NCBI RefSeq assembly: GCF_003790525.1
Contig: NZ_CP033633.1
DNA length: 64,000 bases
From: Escherichia coli
Lineage (GTDB): Bacteria; Pseudomonadota; Gammaproteobacteria; Enterobacterales; Enterobacteriaceae
Strand: one strand, 5' to 3'
Shown: positions 40,103-53,139 of the stretch, piece by piece
Position numbering within the stretch: position 1 is the stretch's first letter
Layout: every line of letters starts with the position of its first letter
Notes under the pieces: model-generated
Told to the model about the DNA's origin: nothing
The model's input: the letters and a program-made list of their open reading frames with translations, nothing else
Databases searched by the model: none
Program-made: the position numbers and the translations under genes

Positions 40103-40447
40103 GATGTCGCCGGCGGCTCCGCTTTACCCGGCCATGCGGGGCATGGCCTTGTGGGTTTTCAACTCTGTAGCCTCAGCGTCGTGTGCGGGCTGTGCCGTGC
40201 CTCCATCGTAGCCGGGCTTCTGCGGGCGGGTTGCAAGGTAAGGTGAACCGCTGCGGTCACCCGGTCCCTCCTTCCCGTCTGCCGTGATTTTCCGGTCGTT
40301 CACCCGCTCAGATTTCGCGGTCTCACCCTCCAACTCCCGTCAGCCGTGTGCGTCAGGCTGCGGCTTCCCTTGCGCCCTTGCAACCCTGCAGGCCCGGCAA
40401 AGATGGAGGCACGGCACCGCCCGGTGTCGCGGAATATGTGAACAACG
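40103..40447 (+). repeat. structured non-coding repeat, family A copy 1 (ssi/Frpo-like candidate)
   Basis: ~345 bp GC-rich, near-identical to 47056-47402; directly upstream of the klcA-like gene. Confidence 0.6.
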
Positions 40448-41744: not shown

Positions 41745-42300
41745 CTTCGGCTCCCGGCTGCCTGGCGGCATCCGGTCGTCAGGCCCGACTCCGACAGGCA
41801 GCTGCTGGCGCACCCGCCAGTCTCCGCCGAACCCGCTGGCGCGGTTTCGGGCTGTCGCTACGGTCCGATGCGTGAAAACCCGGGCTTGCAGCGACCGTTC
41901 CGGTCGCGCCGCCTCTGTCGCGCCGTGACCTGCGCTCCCTGCACACCTGACGGTGTGTGAGGAAACTGCGCCTGATGGCGCAGCAGTCTTCCCTCCTGCC
42001 GCCACCTCTGCGGCCTGTTTCCCGCTGTGGACTTTCCGGGGGGCAGACGTAACCCCCTCCCGTTCCATCTGTCCAGGGTGAGATGCACCGGCCACAAAAT
42101 TTTTAGCCATGAACCCGGCTAAAAATTTTGCGTCCGCCCCCGGACAGCTGTCCCGTGAGGCGGTAAACGGGCCCCCATCGGAAAGGTCCACTGCGGGGAG
42201 AAACCCCTGTGAAGTGGACGGCAGGAGGAGCTTTCGCTCCTCTGAAGGGGCACATGAACGTCCCGTCGCCGGTATCCGGTTTATCTCACATCTTTCAGTC
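41745..42300 (+). repeat. structured non-coding repeat, family B copy 1 (ssi/Frpo-like candidate) upstream of ssb
   Basis: ~555 bp GC-rich, many internal palindromes; paralogous to 48098-48640 and 51470-51850. Confidence 0.6.
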
Positions 42301-47055: not shown

Positions 47056-47402
47056 GGACGTCGCCGGCGGCTCCGCTTTTACCCGGCCATGCGGGGCATG
47101 GCCTTGTGGGTTTTCAGGTATGAAGCCATCGTGTCGTGTGCGGGCTGTGCCGTGCCTCCATCGTAGCCGGGCTTCTGCGGGCGGGATGCAAAGGTACGCT
47201 TCGCCGCTGCGGTCACCCGGTCCCTCCTTCCCGTCTGCCGTGATTTTCCGGTCGTTCACCCGCTCAGATTTCGCGGTCTCACCCTCCAACTCCCGTCAGC
47301 CGTGCGCGTCGGGCTGCGGCTTTCCTTGCGCCCTTGCATCCCTGCAGGCCCGGCAAGGATGGAGGCACGGCACCGCCCGGTGCCGCAGAACATGTGACTA
47401 TG
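47056..47402 (+). repeat. structured non-coding repeat, family A copy 2 (ssi/Frpo-like candidate) upstream of ardA
   Basis: Near-identical to 40103-40447. Confidence 0.6.
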
Positions 47403-48097: not shown

Positions 48098-48640
48098 CTT
48101 CGGCTCCCGGCTGCCTGGCGGCATCCGGTCGTCAGGCCCGACTCCGACAGGCAGCTGCTGGCGCACCCGCCAGTCTCCGCCGAACCCGCTGGCGCGGTTT
48201 CGGGCTGCCGCTACGGTCCGATGTCTGAAAAACCAGGCCTGCAGCGACCGTTCCGGTCGCGCCGCCCCTGTCGCGCCGGAAACGGCGCTCCCTGCACACC
48301 TGACGGTGTGTAAGGCCACTGCGCCTGATGGCGCAGTTGTCTGCCCTTCCGCCGCCACCCCTGCGGCCTGTTTCCCGCTGTGGACTTTCCGGGGGCTGAA
48401 GCGGCCACAACACGTTTCAGCCGTCCAGGGGAGAGATGTACCAGCCACAAAACTTTTTGCCGCAGGCGTCAAAAACTTTTGCGTCTGCCCCCGGACAACT
48501 GCCCCGTGCCGTGGCAGTCGCTGCCCCATCGGAAAGGTCCACTGCGGGGAGAAACCCCGAAGAAGTGGACGGCAGAAGGGGCTTTCGCCCCTCCGGGGAA
48601 TAACCGGTCGGCCCGGCGACCTGATTCAGCAGAAGGAGAC
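48098..48640 (+). repeat. structured non-coding repeat, family B copy 2
   Basis: Paralogue of 41745-42300. Confidence 0.6.
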
Positions 48641-48646
48641 GTTTTC

Positions 48647-49081
48647 ATGACAGTCAGCAGCACGATTTCCGTTTTTTGCCGAGACGGGGTGTTCCGTACC
48701 GTTTACTGCCACCTGCACGGTGAGCCGACCTGGAACGGTCGCATCCTGCATACCCACTATGCCACCGGTCAGCTGGCCGAAGCCCTGGTTGAACACGGAG
48801 ATATCCGTTGCCTCGGTCCCCGTTGCGACAAACCCGCCGGGCATACGCTTCAGAACCCGGTGGACGGTGTGACGGCTTATTACGGACGTGACAGTGGTTT
48901 CCGGATGGACAGTGAAGCGCGTGAGTACCGCTCTTTCAGGGAGGCTATTGCCACTGAAAGCACAGAAGAGGTGCGCTTCCATTATGTGTTCATCGACGGC
49001 TACTGGAAGGTGATGTACCGCACGCCGGAAGGCTGGAAGATGAAAGCGCTCGCGCTGGCACTGCGTCGCTGTCCGGAATGA
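48647..49081 (+). CDS. hypothetical leading-region protein (Cys/His-containing)
   Basis: 144 aa from ATG 48647 (MTVSSTISVFCRDGVFRTVYCHLHGEPTWNGR...); SD aggaga 9 nt upstream. Confidence 0.55.
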   Translation: MTVSSTISVFCRDGVFRTVYCHLHGEPTWNGRILHTHYATGQLAEALVEHGDIRCLGPRCDKPAGHTLQNPVDGVTAYYGRDSGFRMDSEAREYRSFREAIATESTEEVRFHYVFIDGYWKVMYRTPEGWKMKALALALRRCPE

Positions 49082-49440: not shown

Positions 49441-49504
49441 TTAACCCTTGCCGTCTGCCTGTGCAGGCGGCAGGATACGTTCAGACATCTCACCAGGAGG
49501 AACC

Positions 49505-50467
49505 GTGAGTAAGAAGAAAACCACCACGACGCCCACGCCGCATGATGCCGCGTTCCGGTCGTTCCTGGCGAACCCCGACGTCGCCAGAGATTTTCTGGAA
49601 CTGCATCTTCCGGCGGAGTACCGGCAGTTGTGCGACCTGTCCACGCTGAAGCTGGAACCCGCCACCTTTGTTGAGCCGGACCTGCATCAGTACGCCAGCG
49701 ATATCCTCTGGAGTGTGAAAACCACCGGGGGTGAAGACGGCTATATTTATACGCTCATCGAGCACCAGAGCACCGAAAATCTGTACATGCCTTTCCGCAT
49801 GTTACGTTACAGTGTGGCGGCGATGCAGAGACATCTGGAGCAGCACAAAACATTGCCACTGGTGATTCCGGTGCTGTTCTATCATGGTGAGCGCAGCCCG
49901 TACCCGTACAGCATGAACTGGCTGGACTGTTTTGAGGATCCGGCGCTTGCGGCTAAAATATACACAAAGCCGTTTCCGCTGGTTGATATCACTGTCGTTG
50001 ATGACAATGAAATCATGAACCATCGCCGGATGGCCGCACTGACGCTGCTGATGAAGCATATCCGCCATCGTGACATGATGGAGCTGCTGGACAAACTCCC
50101 GCAGGTCATGGTGGAAATTTCAGACGAGCAGGTGCGTGTTCTGATTCATTACATCGTTAACGCAGGGGACTCTGTATCACCGGAATTTATGCGGGCGCTG
50201 GCTGAGCGTCTGCCGCAGCATGAGGATAAACTGATGACTATTGCCGAACGTCTTGAGCAGCAAGGAATACAGAAAGGAATACAGCAGGGAATACAGCAGG
50301 GAATACAGCAGGGAATACAGCAGGGAATACAGCAGGGAATACAGAAAGGCCGCATGGAGGAGAAGCAGGATATTGCGCGTCAGCTTCAGAAAACGGGAAT
50401 GCCATCTGCACAAATCTGTCAGATCACCGGACTTTCCGAAGCTGAACTGAAGAACATCACTCACTGA
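49505..50467 (+). CDS. Rpn-family (YhgA-like, PD-(D/E)XK) recombination-promoting nuclease with repeat-containing C-terminal tail
   Basis: GTG start with SD caggagga; N-terminal HDAAFRSFL...DFLELHLP...IEHQS...FRMLRYS motifs; C-terminal GIQ[QK] x7 repeat then conserved tail. Confidence 0.75.
   Translation: MSKKKTTTTPTPHDAAFRSFLANPDVARDFLELHLPAEYRQLCDLSTLKLEPATFVEPDLHQYASDILWSVKTTGGEDGYIYTLIEHQSTENLYMPFRMLRYSVAAMQRHLEQHKTLPLVIPVLFYHGERSPYPYSMNWLDCFEDPALAAKIYTKPFPLVDITVVDDNEIMNHRRMAALTLLMKHIRHRDMMELLDKLPQVMVEISDEQVRVLIHYIVNAGDSVSPEFMRALAERLPQHEDKLMTIAERLEQQGIQKGIQQGIQQGIQQGIQQGIQQGIQKGRMEEKQDIARQLQKTGMPSAQICQITGLSEAELKNITH
50234..50467 (+). CDS. putative intragenic small ORF (RpnS-like) from an internal in-frame SD+ATG within the Rpn gene
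   Basis: gagga-N7-ATG at 50234; product MTIAERLEQQ(GIQx)n...TGLSEAELKNITH parallels the two stand-alone downstream cassettes. Confidence 0.4.
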   Translation: MTIAERLEQQGIQKGIQQGIQQGIQQGIQQGIQQGIQKGRMEEKQDIARQLQKTGMPSAQICQITGLSEAELKNITH

Positions 50468-50529: not shown

Positions 50530-50703
50530 ATGACGATTGCAGAACGTCTTGAGCAAAAAGGTCGCCAGGAGGGCAGGATGGAAGGTGCGCTTGAAAAAGC
50601 CCTGGCTATTGCGTGCCAGCTTCAGAAAATGGGGATGACGCCGGAGCAGATTAAGCAGGCTACCGGACTGTCCGAAGCTGAACTGAAAAAAATCATTCAC
50701 TGA
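50530..50703 (+). CDS. stand-alone Rpn C-terminal-tail paralogue (orphan RpnS-like cassette 1)
   Basis: 57 aa MTIAERLEQKGRQEGRMEGALEKALAIACQLQKMGMTPEQIKQATGLSEAELKKIIH; own SD and ATG. Confidence 0.5.
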   Translation: MTIAERLEQKGRQEGRMEGALEKALAIACQLQKMGMTPEQIKQATGLSEAELKKIIH

Positions 50704-50761: not shown

Positions 50762-50992
50762 ATGACTATTGCAGAACGTCTTATACAGAAAGGTTTCGAC
50801 GAAGGTTTTAAAGAAAGTTTTAAAGAAAGTTTTAAAGAAGGCTTTAAAGAAGGCTTTAAAGAAGGGGCGCTTGAAGTGGCGCGGGAAATAGCCTGCCGGC
50901 TGCGGGATATAGGCTGGCCGCCGGAACGGATTCAGGAGGTCACGGGACTTTCCGGTGAAGAACTGAAAAAGCTGTTTCCTGATGAGCAGTAG
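50762..50992 (+). CDS. stand-alone Rpn C-terminal-tail paralogue (orphan RpnS-like cassette 2) with FKE[SG] repeats
   Basis: 76 aa MTIAERLIQKGFDEGFKESFKESFKEGFKEGFKEGALEVAREIACRLRDIGWPPERIQEVTGLSGEELKKLFPDEQ. Confidence 0.5.
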   Translation: MTIAERLIQKGFDEGFKESFKESFKEGFKEGFKEGALEVAREIACRLRDIGWPPERIQEVTGLSGEELKKLFPDEQ

Positions 50993-51022
50993 CCTGGCAT
51001 TCAGCCAGGCTGTGAATCATGC

Positions 51023-51274
51023 TCACACATCCTCTGCCGTTTCCCCCAGTTCATTTTCCAGACGCCTGATGATATCTGCCTTACGCATCCCCTGCATGTG
51101 AGGCAGCAGGTCACGGACTGAAAGAGCCTGGGTGGTCCTCCAGACGGTGACGTCCACCTGTTCCGCATTTTCCCAGGCGTGCCATGTTCTCTGCGTCACG
51201 CCAAATTCTCTGGCCGCTTTTTCGCGTGACCAGAGCATGCTTTTTCGCCAGATTCGCAGTTCCCAGCCGGTCAT
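51023..51274 (-). CDS. small putative DNA-binding regulator (HTH-like), antisense to the leading-region block
   Basis: 83-aa ORF; promoter-side intergenic region carries GTGAA-N5-TTCAC palindromes. Confidence 0.4.
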   Translation of the reverse strand: MTGWELRIWRKSMLWSREKAAREFGVTQRTWHAWENAEQVDVTVWRTTQALSVRDLLPHMQGMRKADIIRRLENELGETAEDV

Positions 51275-51291
51275 AAAACACCTTTGAAAAA

Positions 51292-51374
51292 GTGAAAAAA
51301 CTTCACTTTATTTTATCACCATAATTGCCAAATCAGCGCGATAAATAAGTGTGAAAAAAGTGAAGAAATTTCAC
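51292..51374. promoter_or_regulatory. two 15-bp palindromes GTGAA-N5-TTCAC (51292-51306, 51360-51374): candidate operator pair
   Basis: gtgaaaaaacttcac and gtgaagaaatttcac, plus extra GTGAA half-site at 51351. Confidence 0.45.
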
Positions 51375-51469
51375 TTTTTTTGGTTGCAGATGTCGTGCGG
51401 TTTTCTCTGTTTTCACCTGTGCGGGAGTGGTGCGCCAGTGACCACAGCATGCCGTTGTTGTGCCGTCGG

Positions 51470-51850
51470 TTTTCTCCGGTCGCGCCGGATGCGGCGCTCC
51501 CTGCACACCTGACGGTGTGTAAGGCCACTGCGCCTGATGGCGCAGCTGTCTCTGCCTGTCTGCCGCCGCACTGCGGCCCGTTCTCCGCAGACGAACTTTC
51601 CGGGGGTACATACACGACCACATCCCGTTTCAGTCGTCCAGGGGAGAGATGTACCAGCCACAAAACTTTTTGCCGCAGGCGTCAAAAACTTTTGCGTCTG
51701 CCCCCGGACAACTGCCCCGTGACGTGGTGAGCGTCCCCCGTCGGAAAGGTCCACTGCGGGGAAATCCCCGAAGACCCGGACGGCAGAAGGAGCTTCGCTC
51801 CTCCGGGAAATGACCTGGCTGACCCGGCAGTCGTGACGATGAGGAGACAA
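51470..51850 (+). repeat. structured non-coding repeat, family B copy 3 (5'-truncated)
   Basis: Collinear with the 3' ~380 bp of 48098-48640. Confidence 0.55.
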
Positions 51851-51854
51851 TGTG

Positions 51855-52703
51855 ATGAATCAGACTTTACCCACTGCTGACCTGAATACTGCCGGCACGA
51901 CAGATGTTATTCCGTCTGTGGCTATCGACCGCATCATCGCGCAGCGTAACGAAGGTATTGCACTGTTCATGCAGGCGATGGAATGCCTGGCGACAGCGCG
52001 CAGGATTCTGCTCGATGCGTCAGGTGATATTTTTCTTTACGGGTTTGAAGACTGCGTGACTGATTCCGTTCGTCGCATGGATAAACCGGAAGAAGCGAAA
52101 AGGAATATCACCCGTCTTGCCGACCGGAAAATCTGGGACCGCCTGATGACAGATACGGGCATGTACACCTTCATGAGTTCATGCCAGCGTGATGAGTGGA
52201 ACAGCCAGCTGATGAGCGACACCTGTCCTGAAATCATCCTGGACAATGTACTGGCAACATTCCGCCATCTGAATGCCAGCAAAATGCAGACATTTGAACA
52301 GGGACTGATTGATGTCTACCGGAAATTGTCATGGGATTACAGAACCAATAATCCCTGCCGTCTGGGCAAGAGAATCATTATTGAAAACCTGCTGTACCGC
52401 TGGAGTAACGGGCGTGTGACGCTGGACTGCAGCGGGCGGGAGGCACTGGATGACCTGGTACGTCCGTTTTATCTGCTGGATGGGCGCAACATTCCTGACT
52501 TCCGGAGCAGCATCGGGGCGCAGTATGGTGAATTTCTCGGGAACGGCGACAATGTCGGTAAGCTGTTAGAAGGGGAATATTTTACGGTGCGTGGCTACCA
52601 GAAAGGGACCGTACACATTGTCTTTAAGCGTTCTGACCTTGTTGAAAAACTGAATGATATTATTGCACGGCATTATCCTGGTGCATTGCCGCCACGAGTC
52701 TGA
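51855..52703 (+). CDS. hypothetical leading-region protein
   Basis: 282 aa from ATG 51855 (MNQTLPTADLNTAGT...); SD gaggag 8 nt upstream; last co-oriented gene before the oriT region. Confidence 0.55.
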   Translation: MNQTLPTADLNTAGTTDVIPSVAIDRIIAQRNEGIALFMQAMECLATARRILLDASGDIFLYGFEDCVTDSVRRMDKPEEAKRNITRLADRKIWDRLMTDTGMYTFMSSCQRDEWNSQLMSDTCPEIILDNVLATFRHLNASKMQTFEQGLIDVYRKLSWDYRTNNPCRLGKRIIIENLLYRWSNGRVTLDCSGREALDDLVRPFYLLDGRNIPDFRSSIGAQYGEFLGNGDNVGKLLEGEYFTVRGYQKGTVHIVFKRSDLVEKLNDIIARHYPGALPPRV

Positions 52704-52788: not shown

Positions 52789-53124
52789 TCAATTGTTGTT
52801 CATATCGATGCCATCTTTTCTGCCTGAATCTGTCTTTTTAGGTGCTGTTTTAGAGGAAGAACGGCGGGATGGTTTTTTCGATTCTGCTTCCCGAATAATG
52901 TCACGAAGTGCCTTCTCTCCTACTTCATACCCTGCATTTTTGAGCGTGTCACGAACATCTGCCAGTGTATAACCCTTTGTCCTTACCAGGACAATGATGT
53001 CATCACGAATGGCATCAAGAAAATCACGCAATGTTTTCCGTTGAGCGGTGAGGTCCGGCAATTCCGATAAGGCAGATTTTGCCAGCTGGATGTCATCATC
53101 TGAGTAAAATTTTTTAGAAGCCAT
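52789..53124 (-). CDS. hypothetical protein adjacent to oriT (basic C-terminal tail)
   Basis: 111 aa from ATG 53124 (MASKKFYSDDDIQLAKS...); SD ggagag upstream on minus strand. Confidence 0.45.
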   Translation of the reverse strand: MASKKFYSDDDIQLAKSALSELPDLTAQRKTLRDFLDAIRDDIIVLVRTKGYTLADVRDTLKNAGYEVGEKALRDIIREAESKKPSRRSSSKTAPKKTDSGRKDGIDMNNN

Positions 53125-53139
53125 TAGCACTTTCTCTCC

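Follow-up and report, generated by a model that had tools for sequence, protein, structure and literature searches.

Described regulators closest to the ygeA system

RstR of the filamentous phage CTXphi is a small XRE-type repressor with lineage-specific operator specificities. The element enters the cell as single-stranded DNA (ssDNA), and the RstR gene runs against its other genes. Aca2 of phage ZF40 is a small helix-turn-helix (HTH) homodimer that autorepresses through two similar inverted repeats in its own promoter and 5′ region (PMC6765145). Reg576 of plasmid p576 is an autoregulated repressor for which a burst of expression in the new host has been described, lasting until the repressor accumulates (PMC6294495). 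Plasmid leading genes, which lie on the plus strand of the DNA studied here, have ssDNA promoters that allow their transcription from the transferred strand (PMC12672017, PMC11541004), and F ygfA, like ygeA, runs against the T-strand and is made only 10–20 min after conversion to double-stranded DNA (PMC9849209).

Here we describe ygeA, a gene in the leading region of an I-complex plasmid. In its proposed mode of action the product resembles Aca2, Reg576 and RstR, although it belongs to none of these groups, and we found no paper in the literature that describes the ygeA family or its operator. On the comparisons given below, we consider it likely that ygeA encodes an autorepressor with two operators in its own promoter, which would be expressed only after the transferred strand has become double-stranded.

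The ygeA locus in the leading region of an I-complex plasmid

The window, by which we mean the whole stretch of 64 000 nt that was analyzed, comprises the leading region and the oriT/relaxase end of an I-complex resistance plasmid (IncI/K-type), with nikA (53270) and nikB (53701) downstream of the ygeA locus. Its top plasmid match was an IncK2/Z plasmid with 99.8% identity, and about 2,000 IncI1/Igamma/K/B/O records matched it at 95–99%. The ygeA region was found in about 2,000 plasmid records and ygeA homologs in 3,698. The gene is called "ygeA" in the R64-style IncI annotation and 'helix-turn-helix transcriptional regulator' in RefSeq. The features of the locus are as follows.

51023..51274 (including the stop codon), minus strand: ygeA-type gene, an open reading frame (ORF) for an XRE/Cro-like HTH protein of 83 aa
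51280..51285, minus strand: Shine-Dalgarno sequence AAGGT, 5–6 nt upstream of the ATG, read from the sequence
51289..51309, no strand: predicted proximal operator O1, AAAGTGAA-aaaac-TTCACTTT, with 8-bp arms
51310..51318, minus strand: predicted extended −10 element TGaTAAAAT of the ygeA promoter, directly abutting O1, called from sequence
51357..51377, no strand: predicted distal operator O2, AAAGTGAA-gaaat-TTCACTTT, followed on the plus strand by T7
51470..51840, plus strand: class-1 single-strand promoter (ssi/Frpo type), given as context and located by repeat families D5 and D8, copy alignment and the literature (PMC12672017)

The ORF at 51023–51274, which an earlier note on this DNA had taken for a minus-strand gene, is a real one: it starts with ATG, encodes 83 aa with an HTH match and is preceded by the AAGGT Shine-Dalgarno sequence, which is invariant in an alignment of I-complex plasmids, neighboring positions excepted. 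The gene is monocistronic, is convergent with a group of Rpn-tail genes and is oriented backwards within the first-entering region, adjoining the single-strand promoter. The same note had called it an antisense regulator and the only minus-strand gene of its block. The former description holds for the orientation of the gene, but there was no evidence of an antisense-RNA mechanism, and the latter does not strictly hold, as the MobC-like gene yggA (52789–53130, minus strand) is also nearby. Located between the DUF4942 gene and nikA, yggA is a second gene that runs against the transferred strand; at least 13 loci contain both yggA and the HTH gene, equally oriented, and no ygeA-type operator was found at yggA.

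RefSeq additionally lists a 65-aa 'hypothetical protein' at about 51308–51505 on the minus strand (639–836 in locus L044), which runs from the interior of the single-strand promoter across both operators and terminates at the TGA that belongs to the predicted extended −10 element. This ORF was probably annotated in error, in DNA that is GC-rich and structured, and other long ORFs within the copies of the single-strand promoter, such as 51380–51730 and 51413–51850, look equally artefactual.

Two inverted repeats upstream of ygeA

The motif GTGAA-N5-TTCAC, a pair of which had been noted upstream of ygeA as perfect 15-bp palindromes, occurs exactly at 51292–51306 and 51360–51374. These are its sole matches in the 64 kb, where 0.09 would be expected, and two or more matches were obtained in 0 of 100 shuffles. 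Owing to an asymmetric center of 5 bp, neither site is a perfect palindrome, and the true inverted repeats are longer than 15 bp. The full repeat, AAAGTGAA-N5-TTCACTTT, is 21 bp long with 8-bp arms, and O1 and O2, 68 bp apart from center to center, remain its only two matches in the window with 3 mismatches allowed. A search with up to 3–4 mismatches covered the window and the other 78 kb of the closest plasmid, NZ_CP029742.1 (roughly 140 kb), and returned no further full operator, so that in both the motif is unique to the ygeA intergenic region. An additional GTGAA half-site that had been noted is indeed present at 51351–51355, but it varies among close relatives and is probably there by chance.

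On the gene strand, the promoter region reads TGaTAAAAT-AAAGTGAAgttttTTCACTTT-ttcAAAGGTgttttATG. The extended −10 element abutting O1 is the sole −10-like element at ygeA, where a consensus scan returned no −35 match and no sigma-70 promoter. Transcription is predicted to start near 51303, about 7 nt downstream of the −10 element and within O1, which would give a 5′ UTR of about 29 nt.

Conservation in close and distant relatives

In an alignment of seven I-complex plasmids including ColIb-P9, variable columns numbered 1 of 21 in O1, 0 of 9 in the −10 element, 14 of 38 in the spacer and 3 of 21 in O2, and the variation in O2 fell in the central 5 bp or the T-run, leaving the arms conserved. 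Judged from this alignment, the predicted operators are conserved islands in an otherwise drifting intergenic region.

The distant set consisted of 38 homologous loci, all from Enterobacterales, that were collected from plasmid records and one genome per species, with a protein identity of 30–86% (30–50% for the distant ones). The palindrome AAGTG-N9-CACTT was located upstream of the start codon, about 30 bp away, in 30 of these loci. When at most one mismatch was allowed, AGTG-N9-CACT gave 43 sites in the 4,940 nt upstream of the 38 homologs (130 nt each) and 54 sites in the other 234,842 nt of the same loci, the latter being about the chance rate and the upstream density 38-fold higher. In every site-bearing locus the proximal site was 29–63 nt upstream of the ATG, and in most homolog loci a TAnAAT-like hexamer was found directly 5′ of the proximal palindrome. 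The AAGTG stem is conserved across loci with otherwise unalignable intergenic DNA, while the center of 5 nt is fixed in length and free in sequence.

A second site was found 56–68 bp further upstream in about 12 homolog loci and three sites in L020–L022; many homolog loci have no distal site, and the spacings of 56–57, 64 and 67–68 bp give no consistent helical phase for the two sites. Two same-sequence operators and an extended −10 element without a −35 element would also suit an activator–repressor switch like that of the C proteins of restriction-modification systems, in which the distal site would activate the −35-less promoter and the proximal site would later repress it, and an IncL/M homolog of ygeA directly precedes a 'restriction endonuclease' gene. 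C-boxes, however, are adjacent sites and not 56–68 bp apart, their motif differs, many homologs have a single site only, no restriction-modification genes flank ygeA in the window, and C.Esp1396I came just 50th in a fold search with the model of the ygeA product. We regard such a switch as improbable and autorepression as the better reading of the two sites.

Eight of the 38 homologs were without a site, mainly in an IncL/M-type subgroup with the gene inside an operon. This subgroup (L005, L007, L027, L030, L032, L034 and L039; 31–35% identity) belongs to the maintenance region, upstream of a tyrosine recombinase gene and parM, and its operator is mostly missing but is present in L032 and L039. 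In pCTX-M3 (L007, 2501–3329, IncL/M), the end of the homolog overlaps the start of the 'restriction endonuclease' gene in a controller-protein-like layout. Family members were also seen in phages (OR545055.1, NC_054966.1 and NC_016767.1): a Yersinia phage copy is identical to the copy on an Escherichia albertii plasmid (L006), and the others are in Klebsiella, Erwinia and Serratia podophages.

The operators are absent from the two other copies of the class-1 single-strand promoter in the window and also from the F leading region, which has Frpo1 and no ygeA homolog. Across the sequences compared, the predicted operator sites follow the ygeA-type gene and not the single-strand promoter.

Protein family and operator specificity

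The ygeA product matched Pfam HTH_31 at E = 1.2e-4 over residues 3–40, and 27 of 43 family members matched HTH_31/HTH_3 at E ≤ 0.001, which identifies them as HTH proteins of the XRE/Cro-C1 type. A match to phrog_6962, which has no assigned function, was obtained at E = 1.8e-13 for the window protein and down to 1.5e-45 for its relatives, while NCBIfam, PADLOC (anti-phage defence) and Rfam gave nothing above threshold for the family, the matches in PADLOC and Rfam being at chance level. A word-indexed protein search returned close relatives only, and an exhaustive profile search was needed for the family, which gave 1,012 cluster representatives at E ≤ 1e-3 and 89 at E ≤ 1e-10. The AF2 model of the product (pLDDT 89.8) has helices at residues 3–12, 17–24, 28–35, 42–60 and 65–76; the second and third would form the DNA-reading helix-turn-helix, with residues 28–35 as the predicted recognition helix. 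A tethered two-copy AF2 model was compact (pTM 0.79, both copies with pLDDT >94), which fits a dimer without proving one.

Throughout the homolog loci, the outer AAGTG/CACTT of the operator is constant and the inner two bases fall into three classes. GTGAA/GTGTA goes with the helix ..TWHAW (H32) in 3 loci, GTGCA with ..YK[SVDAT]Y (K32) in 24 loci and GTGAC/GTGTC with ..YKRY (K32-R33) in 4 loci. The operator class tracks the recognition helix without exception and the varying residues are within the predicted helix 28–35, although this covariation is confounded by phylogeny and is suggestive rather than statistical proof, because there are three clades only.

Islands of conservation in close relatives, recurrence in distant ones, covariation with the protein and absence elsewhere together argue for the palindromes as operators of the adjacent HTH protein, as the earlier note had suggested, and autoregulation is most likely as the most economical reading. 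The sites also superficially resemble the half-sites of CRP, the consensus of which is TGTGA/TCACA with N6 spacing, and could then bind a host factor such as a CRP/FNR-type dimer that is unrelated to the adjacent protein. Such a factor is extremely unlikely, as the sites are spaced as GTGA-N7-TCAC, occur only beside the ygeA family and change their inner bases with the recognition helix of that family.

The predicted −10 element is a call of one hexamer, which could equally be the T-tract of a terminator on the opposite strand, and in the leading-gene direction the palindromes read A-tract, stem, T-tract. They might thus serve mainly as intrinsic terminators or insulators that stop the leading-operon transcripts (from ssi2 through the Rpn genes, plus strand) before the ssi1/DUF4942 unit. 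On the plus strand O2 forms an A/U-rich stem of 12 bp followed by U7 (−11.3 kcal/mol, z = −2.3), the distal site of L013 adjoins a canonical terminator, and in L003 and L016 both palindromes were flagged as terminator-like on the leading-gene strand (2 and 4 matches versus 0.2 expected). In the window both hairpins are weak, however (that of O1 as RNA having −6.3 kcal/mol and z = −0.8), and the terminator scan flagged neither window site. The stem is moreover conserved in its sequence, AAGTGCA, and not just in its pairing, the center keeps a length of 5 nt with free sequence, the inner bases track the recognition helix, and the sites occur only beside a ygeA-type gene. Because of the conserved stem sequence, the fixed 5-nt center and the covariation with the protein, we favor operators over terminators and give a mainly terminating function a low probability. 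A dual role as operator and weak terminator, with secondary insulation, is possible.

Comparison with Aca2, Reg576, RstR and antitoxins

Among solved structures, Aca2 was the best match of the ygeA product in both profile and fold (E = 1.3e-4; Foldseek probability 0.98–0.99, 28–31% identity). However, the Aca2_YdiL profile (PF08965) recovered 0 of 43 members of the ygeA family at E ≤ 0.001 and 3 at E ≤ 0.1, and the ygeA product of 83 aa is all-helical and does not have the C-terminal domain of Aca2. The motifs also differ, AAGTG-N9-CACTT with sites 68 bp apart at ygeA versus TTCG-N6/8-CGAA for Aca2, and ygeA is monocistronic without an upstream acr gene, whereas Aca2 is anti-CRISPR-associated. 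Control by a 5′-UTR RNA hairpin in the manner of Aca2 is unlikely, because the predicted start of transcription is inside O1 and the RNA hairpin is weak.

The likeness to Reg576 would be that of a plasmid-encoded autoregulated repressor in the first-entering region, with the same logic of a burst that lasts until repressor has built up (PMC6294495). Reg576, however, belongs to the ribbon-helix-helix type and acts at four establishment-gene promoters through TTATCCC operators, whereas the ygeA product is an HTH protein for which predicted operators were found at its own promoter only, and the leading genes beside ygeA use ssDNA promoters.

Homology to RstR is weak. It was seen as a faint similarity by tblastn and with the NF041951 profile (E = 2e-8 for the L006 and L007 proteins), for which the relatives scored 16–34 bits against a cut-off of 80 bits and the window protein had no match. 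RstR represses the divergent rstA promoter, and no such target was found at ygeA.

With the XRE-type antitoxins HipB, MqsA and HigA, the ygeA product shares the HTH fold class and weak profile matches and, as proposed here, autorepression through palindromes. Nevertheless, ygeA has no co-operonic toxin or partner ORF, and the NCBIfam matches reached 12–15 bits against cut-offs of 62–79. Two further candidates were rejected. The IncI ygeA is not homologous to the 'ygeA' of F (DUF932, downstream of Frpo1) or to F ygfA (SLT transglycosylase), the shared name being coincidental, and there was no evidence of identity with the 'AcrIE9/10a' HTH-like protein (PMC12248084), which has a beta-sheet insert and an IncF/Klebsiella context.

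Proposed autoregulation and its timing

In the circuit that we propose, a YgeA dimer would bind both 21-bp inverted repeats and repress its own transcription from a promoter that probably consists of the extended −10 element TGaTAAAAT (51318–51310, minus strand) without a good −35 element. As O1 directly follows the −10 element and covers the predicted start, a dimer bound there would block open-complex formation or promoter escape, and O2, 68 bp upstream, may provide cooperative or auxiliary binding. Since ygeA is opposite to the transferred strand, it would not be transcribed from the incoming single strand but only after complementary-strand synthesis, so that a short burst of ygeA expression might follow that synthesis in the new host and give way to a low, autoregulated level. 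An HTH autorepressor with palindromic operators is a standard mechanism and, if autoregulation is all that it does, a routine circuit. As a regulator that serves only itself lacks an obvious purpose, a target is probably missing from this account.

The adjoining single-strand promoter

The 'B3 element' of the earlier note, read-through into which the small protein was suggested to gate, is a class-1 ssDNA promoter of the ssi/Frpo type (51470–51840), located upstream of the DUF4942 gene (51852–52703, plus strand), which it drives. It shares about 350 bp with the copies upstream of ssb and ygcA (about 41745–42300 and 48098–48650), and its fold as T-strand ssDNA had z = −7.8 relative to shuffled controls, with a core hairpin at about 51561–51787. 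The three-copy alignment and the ssDNA fold rule out the palindromes as a part of the repeated element, as the operators are outside both.

With this copy, the window has three class-1 copies, upstream of ssb, ygcA and the DUF4942 gene, respectively, and the oriT-proximal one is without about 190 bp of the left part that is common to the other two. A second repeat pair (40123–40441 and 47078–47397, 92–94% identity) occupies the positions expected for class-2 promoters upstream of klcA and ardA (PMC12672017).

We considered whether YgeA also controls or gates the divergent oriT-proximal leading operon (from ssi1 into the DUF4942 gene), as an Aca-like shut-off or roadblock once the DNA is double-stranded. 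In at least 13 loci, nikA/nikB/yggA homologs are located within 1–4 kb of the HTH gene, whose orientation is the reverse of that of psiB, psiA, ssb or DUF4942. The operator region abuts the left end of the class-1 element in L028 (blastn), the same gggagccgaagg edge is found in L003, L011, L014, L018 and L019, and a locus-wide scan of 400-nt windows with RNA folding parameters placed strongly structured windows (z ≤ −5) directly upstream of the operator region in about 10 loci and just beyond the distal operator in loci with inserted toxin–antitoxin cassettes. In L013/L017/L033 and, with a different cassette, in L035, a perfect distal operator is retained 845–1121 bp from the gene despite the insertion, next to a DUF932 gene and an ssi-like hairpin (z = −8.7), an arrangement that may point to a separate role of the distal site at the boundary of the single-strand promoter. 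Aca2, the nearest structural relative, represses anti-defence operons (PMC6765145). Against such gating, the operators are outside the homology and the hairpin of the single-strand promoter, a conserved divergent promoter for double-stranded DNA was found neither in the spacer, which is not conserved, nor beyond the sites, and L012, L014, L018 and L019 keep the adjacency to the single-strand promoter with a proximal site only. Furthermore, F shuts off its Frpo-driven genes without such a protein (PMC9849209), and ssDNA promoters are reported to inactivate simply on becoming double-stranded (PMC12672017). Gating of the neighboring operon is therefore unlikely, and we retain autorepression as the preferred account of the two operators.

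The inserted cassettes (3157–3970 in L013, 2880–3970 in L035, and those in L017 and L033) encode a RelE/HigB-like toxin and an HTH antitoxin and are located exactly between the operators. The distal operator retained in these loci also adjoins a terminator.

A broader and quite doubtful extension would make the YgeA family a 'double-strand-only' late component of the leading region of MOBP/MPF_I plasmids, placed back-to-back with the oriT-proximal class-1 ssDNA promoter. The operators, doubling as weak terminators, would form a boundary that insulates or silences the first-entering operon after synthesis of the complementary strand, an Aca-like layer for anti-defence islands, and the GTGAA, GTGCA and GTGAC specificities would prevent cross-talk between co-resident plasmids. 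If the insulation or silencing of the first-entering operon were true, a protein layer would be added to a program for which DNA strandedness is at present the sole explanation.

The IncI/K/B/O group ranks among the main vehicles of resistance genes, those for ESBL included, and the leading regions of these plasmids have come to be viewed as anti-defence islands under ssDNA promoters. For a gene annotated merely as 'helix-turn-helix regulator', the present analysis newly provides an operator motif, a predicted promoter, three specificity classes and a conserved position, which together make ygeA a testable candidate for 'late' regulation in the leading region. The conservation of this position, in which ygeA abuts a class-1 ssDNA promoter and runs against the transferred strand, is noteworthy.

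Rpn-tail genes next to ygeA

The Rpn (YhgA-like) nuclease gene at 49448–50467 contains a 12-nt tandem repeat that encodes QGIQ about 8 times (50258–50349) and is followed by two stand-alone genes for Rpn C-terminal tails (about 50530–50703 and about 50762–50992). The tail genes have a common start region, ...ATGAC(G/T)ATTGCAGAACGTCTT..., and the second carries a 12-nt repeat of its own, encoding KE[S/G]F (50811–50866). Hairpin-plus-T-run terminators stand at the ends of the Rpn gene and of the first tail gene, and the same layout of Rpn and tail genes was found in L002 and L008. Rpn toxins are blocked by small intragenic tail proteins with shared tetrapeptide repeats (PMC10400941), so that the free-standing tail genes of the leading region could act as decoys that counter an Rpn defence of the host. 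Where the last tail gene and ygeA converge, an 8-bp GC-rich hairpin, AGCCTGGC-attca-GCCAGGCT, was found between their stop codons at 50992–51013; as it has no T-run on either strand, the convergent transcripts may overlap there.
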